Shown here in pieces: positions 1,621 to 6,439 of a DNA stretch of 19,436 nucleotides. Each line of letters starts with the position of its first letter. Position 1 is the stretch's first letter. Position numbers and translations under genes: made by a program. The notes under the pieces were generated by a model. It worked only from the letters and a program-made list of their open reading frames with translations, did not search any database and had not been told where the DNA came from. The stretch is from a virus. Taxonomy: Duplodnaviria > Heunggongvirae > Uroviricota > Caudoviricetes. The stretch lies in the IMG/VR virus record IMGVR_UViG_2529292972_000014. One strand, written 5' to 3'.

Positions 1621-2358
1621 TCATTCACTCTCTTTCAAACCAGTTTTAACTGTTTGTGGTTTTGGGTAAGGCTGGACTTTGAATAGCTTTGTGTTGAGGC
1701 GTTTTCTGGCCCTCTTGTTCAGAAACCGGATGTAACGAAACTGTCGGAACTTATGAACACTGGCTCTGTCAATATTAGCCCTCAGATGTTCACCTCGTTG
1801 TCCGCCTCGTTTAATGGCATTCCTGCAAATCTCGTGATACCACTCGCCATCAAGTTCATAGAATATTGATTCATGGCTGCCTACATAATCAAAATTGCTT
1901 GCCTGATACACGACACCAAGACAGCCACAACGCTCATCTGCAAACGACTGAACCCACTGTACCTGCGGATAAAGCTGCCTGATTAGCTTGAGCGCGTAAC
2001 TGATTGCCCTTGATTCGGAGTTTCTCGGCATACAGTCATGCAGCCATAGCCGGTTAAGCTCCATATATTCTCGGTTCTGCGTACCCGTTACGACGCGTGC
2101 ACCACTGTTTGGGTTAAGGGCGTAACCCCATTGCATTACGCCAACAAGTTCCCGTTCTGAAAATATGCCCAGATGAAGGTAGGAGTTATTTACGAAACGG
2201 TGGCTGTAATGTTTATTGACGATGACCAGTCTGGCCAGCCAGCAACTTATTGTCTCAACCCGCAACTCACGGGAGCCATAACCAACGATATTGTCGTTAT
2301 AGCGAATAAGTTCAGGCGTGCTGATGATTCGGGATGTGACTTGCTTTCTGTTCCCCAC
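1621..2358 (-). CDS. mom: Mom-family DNA modification protein (adenine modification, anti-restriction)
   Basis: 245-aa ORF immediately downstream of, and overlapping by 47 nt, a Com-like zinc-finger gene; located after the invertase at the prophage terminus exactly as in Mu. GTG start at 2358 with an aaggaa RBS about 9 nt upstream. Identity rests on context and size, not on a remembered sequence alignment. Confidence 0.75.
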
Positions 2359-2512
2359 GACAGGATTTCCTTGTGTATGTGGGGTGCTCTGTGGCGCTCG
2401 GAGATGTGATTTGATTGAGGGTTTTACAGCGCGGACATTTTACTTCCAGATAACTGAAACTGGCCCGTGCCAGTAGCTTATTGCAGTGTCGGCACCGTAT
2501 GTTTCGATACAT
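2312..2512 (-). CDS. com: Com-like zinc-finger translational activator of mom
   Basis: [18 protein letters not shown]...[10 protein letters not shown]...EHPT closely parallels the Mu Com pattern (IRCKNCNKLL...IRCPRCK...EHPT) as recalled. ATG at 2512 is preceded by an aggagg RBS; the ORF track's longer 2557 start is a TTG. Confidence 0.8.
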
Positions 2513-2555
2513 GACCGCATAACCTCCTGCTTTGTTGTTGATGCCTTTCTCATGC

Positions 2556-2698
2556 AATCGATCGACAAAAACGATCGATTCGATTTGTTTAATTGATACA
2601 ACAAATAGATTGAAAAGTCATCAACAATGATTCAGGGAGGTGATTATTTACTTAAAGAAAACGAAGAGTTAGGTGGTGAAAACGATCATAAAATGATC
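2556..2698. promoter_or_regulatory. GATC-rich palindromic region upstream of com-mom (candidate Dam-methylation-sensitive promoter/operator region)
   Basis: Perfect 9-bp inverted repeat aatcgatcg(2556-2564)/cgatcgatt(2572-2580) carrying GATC at 2560-2563 and 2573-2576. Second palindrome gatcat aaa atgatc (2684-2698) carrying GATC at 2684-2687 and 2695-2698. Mu mom is known to be controlled through clustered upstream GATC sites. Confidence 0.4.
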
Positions 2699-2784
2699 AT
2701 TTTATTGACTTTTTATACAGTGAAGGTAGGATCACGCGTATATGTAGTATGTTTCAAATCAACAGGATACTACATAAAAGTGAA

Positions 2785-2812
2785 ACCCAGCATAGCTGGA
2801 ACTATGCTGGGT
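2785..2812. repeat. Perfect 11-bp inverted repeat (acccagcatag ctggaa ctatgctgggt); stem-loop or dimeric protein-binding site
   Basis: Read directly from the sequence. On the minus strand it is followed by a U-rich stretch (ttcacttttatg), so it could terminate or insulate minus-strand read-through into com-mom. Confidence 0.5.
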
Positions 2813-2923
2813 CAATCTGTAAAAACTTGCATCAATGCTTTACTTCGAGCTCGTGGCGTATCCTATGATATTCCCCGGTCTCCTGTAAAGCAGAGATGCA
2901 TAAAAAGGAGATCTTTATCATGG

Positions 2924-3091
2924 ATGAAAGAGCCTGTTTGCCCTGCCTGTAAGACTCCCTTACAGCTCATCTATCGCCGTTCTCGATCTCAAAATGGCAA
3001 GACATACAAACCCAAAAATGCTTCCTGTTTCAGGATGCTGATATGTCCTGCCTGTTCTCCCAGGAGGGAAAATACACAAAACGTGCATTAA
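2924..3091 (+). CDS. Small zinc-ribbon protein (CPAC...29 aa...CPAC), divergent from com-mom; N-terminal extent uncertain (ORF open from 2627)
   Basis: Two CxxC pairs (MKEPVCPACKTPLQLIYRRSRSQNGKTYKPKNASCFRMLICPAC). aaggag RBS at 2905-2910. Ends in a convergent arrangement with the minus-strand 81-aa ORF across a GC-rich hairpin. Plus-strand position among minus-strand genes makes it less certain. Confidence 0.35.
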   Translation: MKEPVCPACKTPLQLIYRRSRSQNGKTYKPKNASCFRMLICPACSPRRENTQNVH

Positions 3092-3100
3092 CAAACTCAC

Positions 3101-3120
3101 CCGGCAGGGAAACCTGCCGG
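3101..3120. terminator. GC-rich hairpin with GAAA tetraloop between convergent ORFs (candidate bidirectional terminator)
   Basis: ccggcagg gaaa cctgccgg, an 8-bp perfect stem. Lies between the stop of the plus-strand ORF (3091) and the stop of the minus-strand 81-aa ORF (3130). U-rich flanks are imperfect on both strands. Confidence 0.45.
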
Positions 3121-3129
3121 TCGGTATTG

Positions 3130-3375
3130 TTACATCATAGTACCGTCAGTTCCGGGCTGAACCGGCTCTGGTTGCTCTACGGGTTGAGGATCATTTTCCG
3201 TGCTGTTTTCAGCCGGAGAACGGCCAACCATTCGGGCCAGCACTTCATCAACATATGCGTCGATTTGTGCCTCAAAATCCTTGCGAACCTGCGCCTTCAG
3301 CACGCGGTTCACTTCTTCAGAATAAAGTGCCTGTTTGACAAGCTCTTCAGTAACCGTGCCTTTAATCTCTGGCAT
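3130..3375 (-). CDS. Hypothetical 81-aa acidic, Pro/Glu-rich C-terminus protein
   Basis: Strong aaggag RBS 7 nt upstream of the ATG at 3375. Followed by the hairpin at 3101-3120. No family recognised. Confidence 0.5.
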   Translation of the reverse strand: MPEIKGTVTEELVKQALYSEEVNRVLKAQVRKDFEAQIDAYVDEVLARMVGRSPAENSTENDPQPVEQPEPVQPGTDGTMM

Positions 3376-3410
3376 GAATATTCTCCTTTTGCAGGTATAT
3401 TGCCCCGTTA

Positions 3411-3593
3411 TCAGAGCGGGGTCGGGTCGTTTGGGGATGACGGTGCCTGTGCTGTTTTACTGAGTTTTTCAGCTGCCGCATCATCAATTTTACGGCGAAT
3501 ATAATTTCTGATGACCTTATAACCACCGCTCACCAGATATAACGCACTGACCACAGCGCAGAAATAAAGCAGCATTGTATGAACGAATGTCAT
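3411..3593 (-). CDS. Hypothetical 60-aa small membrane protein (single N-terminal TM helix, charged C-terminus)
   Basis: Hydrophobic stretch MLLYFCAVVSALYLVSGGY followed by a basic/acidic tail. Plausible RBS (aaggtaagg) upstream of the ATG at 3593. No family recognised. Confidence 0.4.
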   Translation of the reverse strand: MTFVHTMLLYFCAVVSALYLVSGGYKVIRNYIRRKIDDAAAEKLSKTAQAPSSPNDPTPL

Positions 3594-3661
3594 ATAACCT
3601 TACCTTTGATATTGACTACATAATTCGTTATCGGGTAAAAACATCGAAGCGACTGATAACC

Positions 3662-3686
3662 ACTCCTTCGGGAGTATTTTTATTTT
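3662..3686 (+). terminator. Intrinsic-terminator-like hairpin on the plus strand (actcc-UUCG-ggagt followed by atttttatttt)
   Basis: 5-bp stem with a UUCG tetraloop and a T-rich tail, read directly. Oriented opposite to all neighbouring genes. Confidence 0.35.
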
Positions 3687-3705
3687 CCTTTATGGGTTAG
3701 GTAGC

Positions 3706-3742
3706 TCCCGCCAGCCATATCATGACCGGCGGGATTTTTTTA
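3706..3742 (+). terminator. Intrinsic-terminator-like hairpin on the plus strand (cccgcc...ggcggg followed by T7)
   Basis: GC-rich stem cccgcc(3707-3712)/ggcggg(3728-3733) followed by attttttta. Overlaps the stop codon of the minus-strand 679-aa gene. Confidence 0.4.
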
Positions 3743-5779
3743 TTCTGTTACCGCTTTTTTCACTTCCACCACAATGCTGTCAATCAGCACCGGGTAAGTT
3801 GCATTTTTTGTGATATCCGTTACGCGGAGTTTGTCCACCGGGAAAGTTCCTACTGGTGACTGCGTCAGGGTAAACGCGGCACCATCCTGACCATCAATAA
3901 CCGGAATAACCTGAAGGCTGTTATTTCCTGCAAAACGGAAGGCCAGCGTATGCCATTCATTATCAAATGCACCAAAGGTTCCCAGTTTCTGGTTATTTGT
4001 TGCCACTTTTGCATTGTGGTACATCACATTCAGGTCTTTTGCGTCTGTCTGGATGTAGAACGATGCCAGCAGATTATTCCCTGCATCCCCTGTCAGGGTG
4101 ACACCCTGCGGCAGAGAGGAAACCGGCCAGTAAAGCCCCATGACATACTGGTTTGCCACCAGGTCGCCAGGTACTTTAAAACGACAACTGATTAAACCAC
4201 CATTTTTCAGCAGTTCAGCACCAGTACCGGCATCATGATCCAGATACCAAGATGATTTACCTGTTTCCTTGGTCAGTTTCATTGCCTTACCACCTGTGCC
4301 TCCTGCATCACTGATAATTTCAGCTTTACCGCCAGCCGGCTCCCAGCCCTGGGCTTTCAGATTTCCTTCTGACTCACTGACACGATAAGACAGCAGTGTT
4401 GTGGTTACTGCTTCAGTTTCTGAAGGTGACGGCACTGGTGCTTCAGTTTCAGAAGATGGAACATCGGCTTTTACTGTGGTTCGCCCCGCATGAGTCAGAA
4501 CTGCCGTGGCCAGACGGTCGGAAATAATCCCACGACGTGCCCATGAACTGAAATGGCTGGCCCGGTCCGCAGATGTCCAGGTGGCGGCACTGTTACGCCA
4601 CGTTGAGCCGTAATAACCAATGGATTCAATATCCGGGTCTTCTGCCGGATTGTTGGTGGGTACATTCGCGTCATTTTCATCTGTCATTAATGGAACGAAA
4701 TGAATGTTTTTATCTGTTTTGTTTTTGTAGCCGCCATAGATTGCCTGGTATGCCGGTTCATTTTTCTGTTTCCAGAAATACGTGGTATCGCCACAAATCC
4801 ACGGAACGCCAGCAGCACTGCCACCGGTACACTGTTCCGCCTGTTCAGCCAGGTCTGCGCGGAATTTTTCCACCATCGCCAGAAACAGCGCGGAATGCTC
4901 CGTCGGCTTCGCATCAATATCAAACTCGCCCTGCATCCACACCACAGCAAGCAGGCGGTTTTTCGGGTTCTTCGCCAGTGCCGCTTTTGTCCGGCTGATT
5001 AAGTCCTTATACAGCGGCTTATCCACACCCCAGCGGGCTGAGTCCTCTGAAGCACCCGTGCTGTCACTGTACGTGCCGTCAGCACCCGCCGTGAATGCAG
5101 AACCACCACGGCAGCAGGGAACCAGCAGAATCCCCGCATCTGCCGGAATAAACGGCAGCAGTTTTTTGGCAATGTGAAGCCCCTGACCCACGGTGCCATA
5201 TTGCCCTTTAGCCACATCCGCTTTCGGGTGATTTTTTCCACTCATATCCTGCACATCATGCAGACAGTGGTCGGCCAGAATGATGTCGTTATACTGACAG
5301 GCTTTACCTCCCGGCGTGACTGTACTGCGACGGGCTAACTGCATAATACGCGGTTCGGGGCGGTCATATGTCTCCGGCAGTGGCAGACCTTCACCGTAAG
5401 CCATACCGTTTGACTGACCAGCAAGAACCACCACGTAATACCAGGAAGGGGAGCTGGAAGCAGTTTCATTTCCTGACGGACGGGTATGTGTTTCAGCATT
5501 ATCCCAGTCTGACGGTTCAGCAGTACCGGCAACATCAGCACTTAACGGAATGACCGCACCAATACCCGCTCCGGTAATTTCCACACTCGGATCACCGGAT
5601 ACTGGCCTTACCCACAGGCAATCCCGTGTATTAAAACTGATGAGACAGTCAGCAAATGTCATTCCTCCTTTTGTTTCGGCCGGAGGAAAGGGAGCCTCAA
5701 GAAATGCCGCTGTACCACCGGAAACTTTAACAGTAAAGTTTCCGGGCATTGATGATAGTTGAACCCATTTGGACGTCAT
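3740..5779 (-). CDS. SGNH/SASA-family carbohydrate esterase (sialate O-acetylesterase NanS-p-like) with C-terminal lectin/LamG-like beta-rich domain; phage accessory (moron) gene
   Basis: 679-aa ORF. Motifs YYVVVLAGQSNGMAYGEG (GQSN catalytic-Ser block), VVWMQGEFD (WxQGE block) and a later His-containing block are consistent with sialate O-acetylesterase-type SGNH hydrolases. C-terminal roughly 250 aa is beta-rich and lectin-like. Linker contains a duplicated SETEAPVPSPSETEA segment (direct repeat gcttcagtttc[t/a]gaag about 4410-4456). Confidence 0.65.
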   Translation of the reverse strand: MTSKWVQLSSMPGNFTVKVSGGTAAFLEAPFPPAETKGGMTFADCLISFNTRDCLWVRPVSGDPSVEITGAGIGAVIPLSADVAGTAEPSDWDNAETHTRPSGNETASSSPSWYYVVVLAGQSNGMAYGEGLPLPETYDRPEPRIMQLARRSTVTPGGKACQYNDIILADHCLHDVQDMSGKNHPKADVAKGQYGTVGQGLHIAKKLLPFIPADAGILLVPCCRGGSAFTAGADGTYSDSTGASEDSARWGVDKPLYKDLISRTKAALAKNPKNRLLAVVWMQGEFDIDAKPTEHSALFLAMVEKFRADLAEQAEQCTGGSAAGVPWICGDTTYFWKQKNEPAYQAIYGGYKNKTDKNIHFVPLMTDENDANVPTNNPAEDPDIESIGYYGSTWRNSAATWTSADRASHFSSWARRGIISDRLATAVLTHAGRTTVKADVPSSETEAPVPSPSETEAVTTTLLSYRVSESEGNLKAQGWEPAGGKAEIISDAGGTGGKAMKLTKETGKSSWYLDHDAGTGAELLKNGGLISCRFKVPGDLVANQYVMGLYWPVSSLPQGVTLTGDAGNNLLASFYIQTDAKDLNVMYHNAKVATNNQKLGTFGAFDNEWHTLAFRFAGNNSLQVIPVIDGQDGAAFTLTQSPVGTFPVDKLRVTDITKNATYPVLIDSIVVEVKKAVTE

Positions 5780-5878: not shown

Positions 5879-6439
5879 TTATTTTTCCGAAACGCTCGCA
5901 GGATAATAACGATAAAGGGTTGAAAGGCCGATATCAAAAATAAGTGCCACCTGTCTTCGACTGACACCCCCGGCCAGTAAACGCCCGACCTGCTCGTATT
6001 GTTCCTGCGTGAGACGACGGGGTCTGCCGCCGGTTCGTCCCCTTTCACGGGCAGCTGCAAGACCAGCCCGTGTCCGTTCGACAATTAATTCACGCTCCAT
6101 TTCTGCCAGCGCACCCATTATGTGAAAAAAGAAGCGCCCCATGGGGGTTGACGTATCAATGTTGTCAGTAAGACTACGAAAATTTATCCCCTGTTGCTGT
6201 AATTCATCTGTCAGCGCAACAAGGTGGCGCATACTGCGCCCCAGCCTGTCCAGTTTCCAGACCATCAGTGTGTCACCGGGTTTTAGTTTCTTCAGTGCCC
6301 GCTTCAGTCCCGGCCGCTGTGTCGTTTTACCACTCATTTTATCTTCAAAAATCTGCTCACATCCTGCACATTCCAGCGCATTTCTTTGTAAACCTGTGTT
6401 CTGGTCATTTGTTGATACGCGTATATAGCCAATCAGCAT
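5879..6439 (-). CDS. gin: Serine DNA invertase, Gin/Pin/Cin/Hin family
   Basis: MLIGYIRVSTNDQNTGLQRNAL...WKLDRLGRSMRHL...GRFFFHIMGALAEMERELIVERT... is the canonical resolvase/invertase catalytic domain with a C-terminal HTH. Adjacent to a gix-like crossover site and the invertible fibre segment. Symbol gin chosen from Mu-like context; pin is equally possible. Confidence 0.93.
   Translation of the reverse strand: MLIGYIRVSTNDQNTGLQRNALECAGCEQIFEDKMSGKTTQRPGLKRALKKLKPGDTLMVWKLDRLGRSMRHLVALTDELQQQGINFRSLTDNIDTSTPMGRFFFHIMGALAEMERELIVERTRAGLAAARERGRTGGRPRRLTQEQYEQVGRLLAGGVSRRQVALIFDIGLSTLYRYYPASVSEK

Follow-up and report, generated by a model that had tools for sequence, protein, structure and literature searches.

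The com-mom operon of an Sp18-like Mu-type prophage and its predicted translational switch and GATC-containing operator

Phage DNA with Mom-type hypermodification withstands many restriction enzymes, and the control of mom in phage Mu is a textbook example of layered regulation. Control of the Mu promoter Pmom by Dam and OxyR, and likewise that of agn43 (flu) in Escherichia coli, is described in PMC3378877, PMC2909390 and PMC4872104. In gtr of phage P22, a 13-bp GATC pair is held by one OxyR dimer half-site (PMC2909390). Translation is governed by Com, whose target motif is CC(N)2-3GAG (PMC6483171). In FluMu, Pnm1 and B3, com and a start-codon hairpin drive a different DNA-modifying enzyme, a methyltransferase (PMC3299994), whereas the locus described here carries a true Mom. 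Homologues of Mom and of the Mom regulators are also encoded by Sp18 (PMC3299994), the Mu-like and apparently intact prophage of E. coli O157:H7 Sakai (PMC2669165). No description of the Sp18-type mom regulatory region was found in the literature searched.

The DNA analysed here, referred to as the window, is a stretch of 19,436 nucleotides containing the same kind of prophage. The best explanation of its com-mom locus, and a probable one, is an operon under a Dam/OxyR-type operator and a Com switch, serving Mom hypermodification in an Sp18-like prophage.

The prophage and its mom gene

The window contains an Sp18-like transposable prophage of the Mu type with the com-mom operon at its right end, the position and gene order also found in Mu. 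The right end of the prophage is at 1491-1620; in genomes whose flanks differ, phage matches begin at 1488-1491, and TTTGATAC-containing motifs that resemble transposase sites are repeated across this interval (repeats D1 and D4). To its left is host hypT sequence, and host matches extend through 1490, indicating insertion in hypT, by which this copy differs in location from the Sp18 of strain Sakai. The region is present in 202 complete E. coli genomes, at different insertion sites. Both genes were named in RefSeq beforehand, as 'protein mom' and 'Com family', so their annotation here is routine; the initial annotation had missed that this is the system of a prophage already known and annotated (PMC3299994). 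In Mu, gin is adjacent, whereas here it is separated from the operon by a 3.3-kb esterase cassette and a divergent zinc-ribbon gene.

The mom gene (1621-2358, minus strand, GTG start) encodes 245 aa, by homology the Mom adenine-N6 hypermodification enzyme. The initial annotation had proposed a com-mom operon, a proposal that would have fallen with a 245-aa protein unlike the Mom family. Both the operon and the family assignment are borne out: the protein matches the Pfam Mom family PF25680 at 4e-77 (258.9 bits, cut-off 27.1, profile positions 1-202 of 202) and is 79% identical to Mu Mom in alignment, while the com product matches Zn_ribbon_Com (PF10122) at 3e-12 (46.1 bits, cut-off 22.9) and is 47% identical to Mu Com, the alignment running from residue 2-3. 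Mom also matches PHROG 1384 and the Mu Mom structure PDB 8bv8 (E 4.5e-124). The residues relevant to Mom activity (R111, S124, D149 and R151, and also W48, H58, Y59, Y159 and W181; PMC13219725, with residue numbers 10 higher than those of the 231-aa Mu protein) are all identical to those of Mu Mom in the alignment, and the HTH-like insertion at about 175-209 aligns without gaps. The gene is under purifying selection (pN/pS 0.05-0.16) and is intact in 25 of the 25 near-identical viral contigs that cover its full length. Since identity to Mu Mom is 79% and all of the key residues are kept, the enzyme would be expected to move glycine from Gly-tRNA(Gly) to the N6 of adenine, giving N6-carbamoylmethyl-adenine, a modification that would shield the phage DNA from many restriction enzymes.

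The predicted translational switch

The com gene (2312-2512, minus strand) encodes a 66-aa zinc-ribbon protein that is, by homology, the Com translational activator. Its RCRHC...CPRC residues align with C6, C9, C26 and C29 of Mu Com, the four cysteines of a CxxC...CxxC zinc ribbon. The most likely start is the ATG at 2512, giving the 66-aa product; an AGGAGG (2523-2528) is found 9 nt 5' of this codon, RefSeq has the same 201-nt coding sequence, and the start so placed corresponds to residue 1 of Mu Com. A start at the TTG at 2557 is less likely. With com ending at 2312 and mom starting at 2358, the 47-nt overlap reported previously is correct. The overlap in Mu is 50 nt, and a GUG start for mom is common to both.

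A predicted Com-binding mRNA segment, GAGCGCCACAGAGCA (2385-2399, minus strand), contains CC-ACA-GAG and aligns with the 19-mer Com target of Mu, where the motif also has the form CC(N)3GAG; the motif match itself is CCACAGAG at 2387-2394. The Com-binding stem is weak in the predicted fold, with 2-3 pairs and a C-A mismatch, and is weaker than in Mu. Immediately 3' of this segment, the minimum free energy fold contains a translation-inhibition hairpin (2353-2384, minus strand) in which CCCCAC (2379-2384) pairs with GUGGGG (2353-2358). The mom GUG is in the stem of this hairpin and the AAGGAA Shine-Dalgarno sequence (2367-2372) is in its loop. In Mu the mom GUG is likewise in a CCCAC/GUGGG hairpin, and this arrangement recurs in all of the enterobacterial relatives examined, the Com motif and the stem aligning across 35 distinct relatives. 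Because the alignment of the com-mom junction is gappy, RNAalifold returned no consensus structure for it, and the structure was judged from single-sequence folds and inspection of the alignment columns. The Rfam search gave nothing at gathering thresholds, its sole match in 2300-3200 being at chance level.

The Com-dependent translational layer is thereby conserved at the level of sequence. Because sequence and fold are conserved, it may be expected that com is translated first, that Com would then bind CC-ACA-GAG just 5' of the hairpin sequestering the mom Shine-Dalgarno sequence and GUG, and that binding would open the hairpin and permit translation of mom. The two-layer control suggested by the initial annotation is supported at sequence level in its translational half by the Com motif and the hairpin enclosing the mom GUG, and in part of its transcriptional half.

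Putative operator and candidate promoters upstream of com

Six GATC sites are present here, at 2560, 2573, 2684, 2695, 2730 and 2910. The first four had been described as lying in two perfect palindromes and as being far above random expectation. The positions are right, although neither palindrome is perfect, both being interrupted inverted repeats. An excess is seen in the 413-bp AT-rich intergenic region, which has 6 GATC against 1.4 expected from base composition, but not in the window, which has 71 against 75.6 expected; random placement yields some cluster of 4 sites within 139 bp in 53% of cases, and one of 5 within 174 bp in 17%. Density across the window is thus weak evidence and, being non-significant, was rejected as an argument. 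Conservation in relatives is the stronger evidence that the proximal pair, 2560 and 2573, is not there by chance.

The proximal pair is contained in a putative operator at 2557-2581 (both strands), situated 43 nt from the com ATG; the sequence at 2556-2580 is a 9-bp inverted repeat, AATCGATCG-acaaaaa-CGATCGATT, with a non-symmetric 7-nt spacer. The two GATCs of the operator are 13 bp apart, which by sequence makes it an OxyR-type half-site. A GATC pair with exactly this spacing is found in 38 of 52 distinct com upstream regions, in which the flanks are conserved and the spacers variable; the right arm CGATCGATT is very strongly conserved. Within each lineage the pair is at a constant distance from the com ATG. 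The operator is invariant in the E. coli lineage and has one change in L049, a more distant relative, so that 0-1 operator changes accompany a mom synonymous divergence of 0.19 (L029 and L039) and 0.77 (L049). A scan of viral contigs for ATCGATCG-N7-CGATCGAT returned 59 stretches, about half from the Sp18-like phage group; the others are mostly in high-GC or unrelated contexts, and their number is near a rough chance expectation.

When aligned with Mu, as had been recommended, the proximal pair is the counterpart of the Dam/OxyR target, and by sequence it is the same element as GATC sites II and III of that phage. The two share a ATCGATCG-N8-GATCGATT element with 13-bp GATC spacing. The OxyR-like site of Mu has three GATCs and that of the window two, and the distance from the pair to the com ATG is 70 nt in Mu and 43 nt here. 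The core of the chromosomal agn43 operator, ATCGATCGTTTATATCGATCGAT, and ATCGATCGTTTTTGTCGATCGAT of the window agree at 20 of 23 bases, and GATCs II and III of agn43 are also 13 bp apart; a third GATC is found 19 bp upstream of these in agn43 and is missing from that position in the window. An OxyR-like 37-mer with two half-sites (2561-2597, both strands) agrees with 13 of 20 consensus positions, a register and score equal to those of the known Mu site, the footprint details of which rest in part on secondary citations. The best background score per 260 nt averages 10 with a maximum of 14, and this 14/20 was reached by one unrelated 260-nt segment of the window, making consensus matching weak evidence.

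Following the logic demonstrated for Mu Pmom and agn43, the conserved operator (2557-2581, or to 2597 in its extended form) would have a weak promoter beside or overlapping it. As long as GATCs 2560 and 2573 lack full methylation, host OxyR would bind the operator, and Dam methylation of both would block OxyR and allow transcription of com-mom.

The promoter layout differs from that of Mu, in which the OxyR site is followed by a C-activator site and by a weak promoter with a 19-bp spacer, a T6 run and TAAGAT. This third layer of control in Mu, which the initial annotation did not consider, is without a counterpart here. Neither TTAT-N6-ATAA or ATAACC, nor a T6 run, nor a TAAGAT -10 is found upstream of com, and there is no TTAT-N6-ATAA/ATAAyC box at the 28-nt offset common to four Mu late promoters; with only 43 nt between the GATC pair and the com ATG, a Mu C-activator site has no room. 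The segment at 2649-2691 (TTAT...CACCAC...T-run TAAGTA) was considered as a homologue of Mu Pmom and dropped, because L029 and L039 lack it yet retain com-mom and the operator. The ATAATCAC within it was also rejected as a C-site, being without a -10 at the 28-nt offset of all four Mu late promoters.

A promoter scan of the minus strand over 2513-2860 found no sigma-70 promoter of good quality, and the candidates from the PWM scan are low-scoring. Candidate A (2593-2621, minus strand) consists of ATGACT (2616-2621), 17 nt and TATCAA (2593-2598). It lacks a T at -7; L029, L039 and L032 share both of its hexamers despite divergence just upstream. With this promoter the operator would fall at about +5 to +30, just 3' of the transcription start as in agn43. 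Candidate B (2538-2568, minus strand) consists of TTGTCG (2563-2568), 19 nt and CATCAA (2538-2543), with its -10 as far from the com ATG as the TAAGAT is in Mu; the counterparts of this -10 are TATCAT in L032 and TATCAA in L039. In L049, L050, L051 and L003 there is a good -10 after the GATC pair. In the E. coli lineage the corresponding position is a hypervariable segment, so the promoter of the ancestor may have decayed.

A single Mor/C-family activator is encoded by the prophage, and its box is unlike that of Mu. The late box, TGAwATyCCGCAAArCCyGCC, was derived from only two examples, the lys and I promoters, where it is 30 nt (counted from CCGCAAA) 5' of a TAyGCT -10. No match is found near com at 3 or fewer mismatches; beyond lys and I the best scores in the prophage are 15-16 of 21, none of them upstream of com.

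It could be argued that the ligand of the proximal dyad is not OxyR but a class II phage activator or repressor, or SeqA on hemimethylated DNA, with GATC methylation still being read. The perfect 9-bp inverted repeat has symmetry beyond the needs of an OxyR half-site, and the strong conservation of its right arm fits such a ligand. The dyad is also where the C protein of Mu would be relative to a -10 at the Mu distance, its centre being near -38 with candidate B. However, the late boxes of lys and I are wholly unlike the dyad, the same core is found in the agn43 operator, for which OxyR is the known ligand, and the homologous Mu sites are a documented OxyR target (PMC3378877). A different ligand is therefore considered unlikely, and OxyR is preferred.

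A further reading, in which the GATC pair is a functionless relic or works solely at the RNA level, as a hairpin of the com leader, with com-mom silent or expressed by read-through, is very improbable. It would account for the loss of the -10 of the relatives, for the hypervariable 16 nt after the operator and for the missing late-activator box, and the dyad if transcribed would fold as a hairpin of -11.4 kcal/mol. Against this, no operator change is seen where synonymous divergence is about 0.19, and hardly any where it reaches 0.77, and mom and com are intact under strong purifying selection, which argues for expression. Read-through is disfavoured by two upstream elements, the terminator-like hairpin at 2784-2813 and a further inverted repeat at 3089-3132.

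Because both the translational switch of Mu and a two-GATC, putatively methylation-sensitive operator are kept, the com-mom of this prophage is an ordinary, annotated system with a promoter layout modestly different from that of Mu. The control parts that travel with the genes are the Com switch and the two-GATC OxyR-type half-site, and not the C-activator site or the third GATC. The operator-com cassette seems to be portable, the same GATC operator and com preceding a dcm-family C5-methyltransferase in the relative L108. The operon of the window, a natural and compact variant, could be used to test what portion of the Mu control is needed. It also raises a question posed earlier for Mu in the literature, whether mom expression can phase-vary. 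In its strongest form, the Sp18-like com-mom would have lost the C-dependent late promoter of Mu and be governed by an agn43-like Dam/OxyR operator with heritable ON and OFF states in lysogens. There is little probability that this is so; if it were true, a subpopulation of E. coli O157 cells would have their own DNA hypermodified by Mom.

The distal repeats and the divergent gene

The distal inverted repeats (2684-2705, both strands) consist of GATCAT-aaa-ATGATC (2684-2698) and a perfect 18-bp palindrome, ATAAAATGATCATTTTAT (2688-2705), and are unique within the prophage. The initial annotation had in effect treated all four GATCs as one control cluster. Such a cluster, with or without the fifth site, could form a single two-operator epigenetic switch in which distal and proximal binding alternate as in pap or gtr. 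In favour of this, each pair is in a dyad, with 111-135 bp between them; alternative OxyR sites with two GATC pairs operate in P22 gtr (PMC2909390); and the intergenic region has an excess of GATC. However, the distal GATCs are 11 bp apart and not 13, a spacing that makes them unfit as an OxyR half-site. They are also absent from L029 and L039, in which Mom is 97% identical and the proximal block is the same, while one is kept in L049 and none in L050. In addition, the pair is immediately next to the -35 of the promoter-like sequence that the divergent gene has on the plus strand. A joint switch is thus improbable, and the distal palindrome is probably outside the control of com-mom. Overall, the operon, the translational layer and one GATC pair of the earlier interpretation are retained, and the four-GATC cluster and the density argument are not.

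The promoter-like site of the divergent gene (2705-2732, plus strand) is TTGACT-16-TAGGAT, with the GATC at 2730 overlapping its -10; AGTCAA and TAAGATC are kept in L049. The terminator-like element (2784-2813, minus strand) is a 13-bp hairpin with a T-rich tract after it. It is in the 5' leader region of this gene, and compensatory changes preserve its stem in L049 and L050. The gene itself (2924-3091, plus strand) encodes a 55-aa CxxC...CxxC zinc ribbon and is called in RefSeq as a longer ORF of 154 aa (2627-3091). Compared with Pfam and PHROGs, the 55-aa protein had only generic zinc-ribbon matches below threshold, and a large protein search yielded only near-identical E. coli copies. In L049 and L050, homologues with 43% identity occupy the equivalent position and have the same orientation.

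The com and mom genes and a predicted translational switch

The system belongs to the com-mom kind known from Mu, and both the gene-level and the translational features of that kind are found in the window. The open reading frames of mom (1621-2358, minus strand) and com (2312-2512, minus strand) and their 47-nt overlap are as described in the initial annotation. Its proposal that the 245-aa protein is related to the Mom family held in the database search it had named as a test: the protein covers the whole of Pfam profile PF25680 (4e-77), is 79% identical to Mu Mom and matches 8bv8, the crystal structure of Mu Mom. Residues reported as essential or important for Mom activity (PMC13219725) are all identical to those of Mu, and the HTH-like insertion aligns without gaps. 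Selection on mom is strongly purifying (pN/pS 0.05 in comparison with close relatives, 0.15 with distant ones). Mu Mom makes N6-carbamoylmethyl-adenine from Gly-tRNA(Gly) (PMC13219725) and, by inference, the Mom of the window would do the same.

Com shares 47% identity with Mu Com and has all four cysteines. Its most likely start, as judged from the sequence, is the ATG at 2512 (66 aa) rather than the TTG at 2557, since the ATG has AGGAGG 9 nt upstream, agrees with RefSeq and aligns with the start of Mu Com.

The mom gene starts with GUG in the 3' arm of a predicted hairpin (CCCCAC 2379-2384 / GUGGGG 2353-2358) that has the Shine-Dalgarno in its loop; in Mu, mom likewise begins with a GUG in a hairpin arm. 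Just 5' of this hairpin, GAGCGCCACAGAGCA aligns with the 19-mer Com target of Mu and contains CC-ACA-GAG, in agreement with the motif that SELEX gave, CC(N)2-3GAG (PMC6483171). The layout of Com motif and hairpin is retained in 35 distinct relatives. The predicted Com-binding stem is weaker in the window than in Mu and has a C-A mismatch; a close relative (L043) has a perfect small stem. Com-dependent translation of mom is a prediction for the window that is well supported by sequence.

The GATC pairs upstream of com

GATC sites are present at 2560, 2573, 2684, 2695, 2730 and 2910. The two palindromes initially taken as perfect are both inverted repeats with an interruption; a palindrome of 18 bp that is truly perfect is at 2688-2705. 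The 413-bp intergenic region has 6 GATCs versus 1.4 expected from base composition. For the window as a whole, 71 sites against 75.6 expected represent no enrichment. A four-site cluster equally tight occurs somewhere in 53% of random placements. The density by itself is not compelling.

On the coding strand the proximal pair reads AATCGATCG-tttttgt-CGATCGATT and Mu GATC sites II and III read AATCGATCG-gtaatac-aGATCGATT, with the same 13-bp spacing. The com gene was located in each of 101 Mom loci and 52 distinct upstream regions were compared; 38 of these contain a GATC pair with a spacing of exactly 13 bp, variable spacers and conserved flanks. The pair is absent upstream of com in non-enteric relatives such as L010, L011, L093 and L097. 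The E. coli lineage shows a single flank change in an otherwise invariant operator, at a 19% difference in synonymous sites of mom, and there is one operator change relative to the locus L049 at a synonymous divergence of 0.77. In P22 gtr, a 13-bp GATC pair is the content of one OxyR dimer half-site (PMC2909390). Of 20 OxyR consensus positions, 13 are matched by the 37-mer at 2561-2597, against a background averaging 10 with a maximum of 14; the known site of Mu has the same score in the same register. The agn43 operator core of E. coli K-12, ATCGATCGTTTATATCGATCGAT, is identical to the window at 20 of 23 positions. Together, the conserved pair, the operator conservation, the P22 gtr half-site, the consensus score and the agn43 match make Dam-methylation-sensitive binding of OxyR at the proximal pair the best reading, predicted from sequence. 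A reduced version of Mu's Dam/OxyR feature would be present, having two GATCs. It is unlikely that the DNA-hypermodification gene is under an agn43-like phase switch in O157 lysogens.

The distal pair does not share in this. Its GATCs are 11 bp apart, to which the OxyR half-site is not fitted. L029 and L039 have a Mom that is 97% identical and share the proximal block; their sequence diverges completely upstream of about -115 and the distal pair is missing; one of its two GATCs is kept in L049 and none in L050. The distal palindrome adjoins the -35 of a promoter-like site on the plus strand (TTGACT-16-TAGGAT). The fifth GATC overlaps the -10 of this site, which is directed at a zinc-ribbon gene of 55 aa (CxxC...CxxC) that diverges from com (2924-3091, plus strand; upstream region 2705-2923). 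This gene is in the same divergent position, at 43% identity, in L049 and L050. Based on the spacing, the absence from relatives and the adjacent promoter-like site, the distal repeats are assigned to the control region of the divergent gene, or to no function, rather than to mom control. Of the Mu-like two-layer control proposed initially, the Com layer and a reduced two-GATC layer are retained as predictions, without the distal pair.

No family could be assigned to the 55-aa protein. The RefSeq ORF is 154 aa from 2627, with conservation confined to the 55-aa part, and the gene is truncated in L108. A GATC lies within the -10 of its promoter-like site (TAGGATC; TAAGATC in L049). On the minus strand there is a terminator-like 13-bp hairpin with a T-tract (2784-2813), its stem kept with compensatory changes in L049 and L050, behind a promoter-like site, TTTACA-18-TAGGAT (2860-2889). 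These could generate a small RNA of ~75 nt antisense to the zinc-ribbon leader, for which Rfam has no match.

In L108 (8340-9614) the same GATC operator and a com nearly identical to the L049 type are followed by a dcm-family cytosine-5 DNA methyltransferase in place of mom (TIGR00675, 3.9e-40), beginning with a similar GTG MGNK. This indicates that one operator-com cassette drives different DNA-modifying enzymes. Two more recurrent families of ATCGATCG-N7-CGATCGAT sites are found in viral contigs without Mom, one with spacer GTTTCAA (L113, L126, L132, L151, L153, L155, L161) and one with spacer CGTTATG and further GATCGAT nearby (L115, L127, L134, L142). These might be other methylation-sensitive operators.

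Candidate promoters of com

In Mu, all four late promoters have an ATAAyCmC box that lies 28 nt upstream of the -10. This C-dependent architecture is not seen in the window, which has no such box in a usable position upstream of com. The GATC pair is 43 nt from the com ATG, versus 70 nt in Mu. The prophage has a single Mor/C-family activator, versus two in Mu. Its lysozyme (lys) and protease (I) genes share an upstream box, TGAwATyCCGCAAArCCyGCC-N16-TAyGCT, 30 nt from the -10. These features were seen in L105 (28440-28560 and 20545-20740), the same prophage in strain FRIK2455. Nothing resembling the box is upstream of com, and none was seen inside the N gene, the site of the P promoter in Mu.

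Three weak candidates for the com promoter are predicted. Candidate A (2593-2621, ATGACT-17-TATCAA), which the E. coli lineage conserves, would place the operator just after the start, like agn43. Candidate B (2538-2568, TTGTCG-19-CATCAA) has its -10 at Mu's distance from the com ATG, and candidate C (TTCACT-17-AATGAT) overlaps the distal palindrome. In L049, L050, L051, L003 and L108 a good TAnnnT hexamer is 11-13 nt after the GATC pair, so the operator there overlaps the -35 and spacer. For candidates A and B, and in these five relatives, a protein bound at the operator would interfere with initiation. The TAnnnT position has decayed in the E. coli lineage. Among 14 distinct near-identical sequences of this lineage, 11 of 16 columns vary, with a 6-nt indel, in the 16 nt after the operator (2538-2556, minus strand), the place of the good -10 hexamer in relatives; the two neighbours of this segment, the operator and CAACAACAAAGCAGGAGG, hardly vary.

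The prophage and its setting

The left 1.49 kb of the window is E. coli chromosome, containing iraD and hypT without its N-terminal part, and the remainder, from ~1491, is the right half of a transposable prophage of Mu-like type. Its DNA recurs in 202 complete E. coli genomes, most of them O157, inserted at many different places, with the RefSeq labels 'protein mom' and 'Com family DNA-binding transcriptional regulator'. It is of the Sp18 type described for O157 Sakai (PMC2669165), and one paper reports that homologues of Mom and of its regulators are encoded at the corresponding place in Sp18 (PMC3299994). Annotation of the genes already exists and their occurrence in Sp18 is in print; no published description of the regulatory variant, a modest variation, was found in the literature searched.

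The 3' end of a Mu-type gin may have left two relics on the minus strand: an ORF fragment, NILHIRVILPSLYKKSIK-stop (2695-2750), resembling Mu Gin ...ALIYDVALSTLYKK, and ATCAATTAA (2588-2596), which matches the last codons of Mu gin. These similarities are short and could be chance. The functional gin (5879-6439) has a different end (...STLYRYYPASVSEK). Between gin and com-mom is a cassette typical of Stx/lambdoid phages (3130-5779, minus strand), encoding a 679-aa DUF6645 and sialate O-acetylesterase-like protein as well as one protein each of DUF1378 and DUF826. The convergent DUF826 and zinc-ribbon genes flank an inverted repeat of 20 nt with 75% complementarity (3089-3132). Three repeats containing TTTGATAC at the phage end (~1491-1600) look like transposase-binding sites. 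The insertion target, hypT, encodes a hypochlorite-stress LysR regulator, of which the remaining ORF (893-1490) has the substrate-binding domain only.
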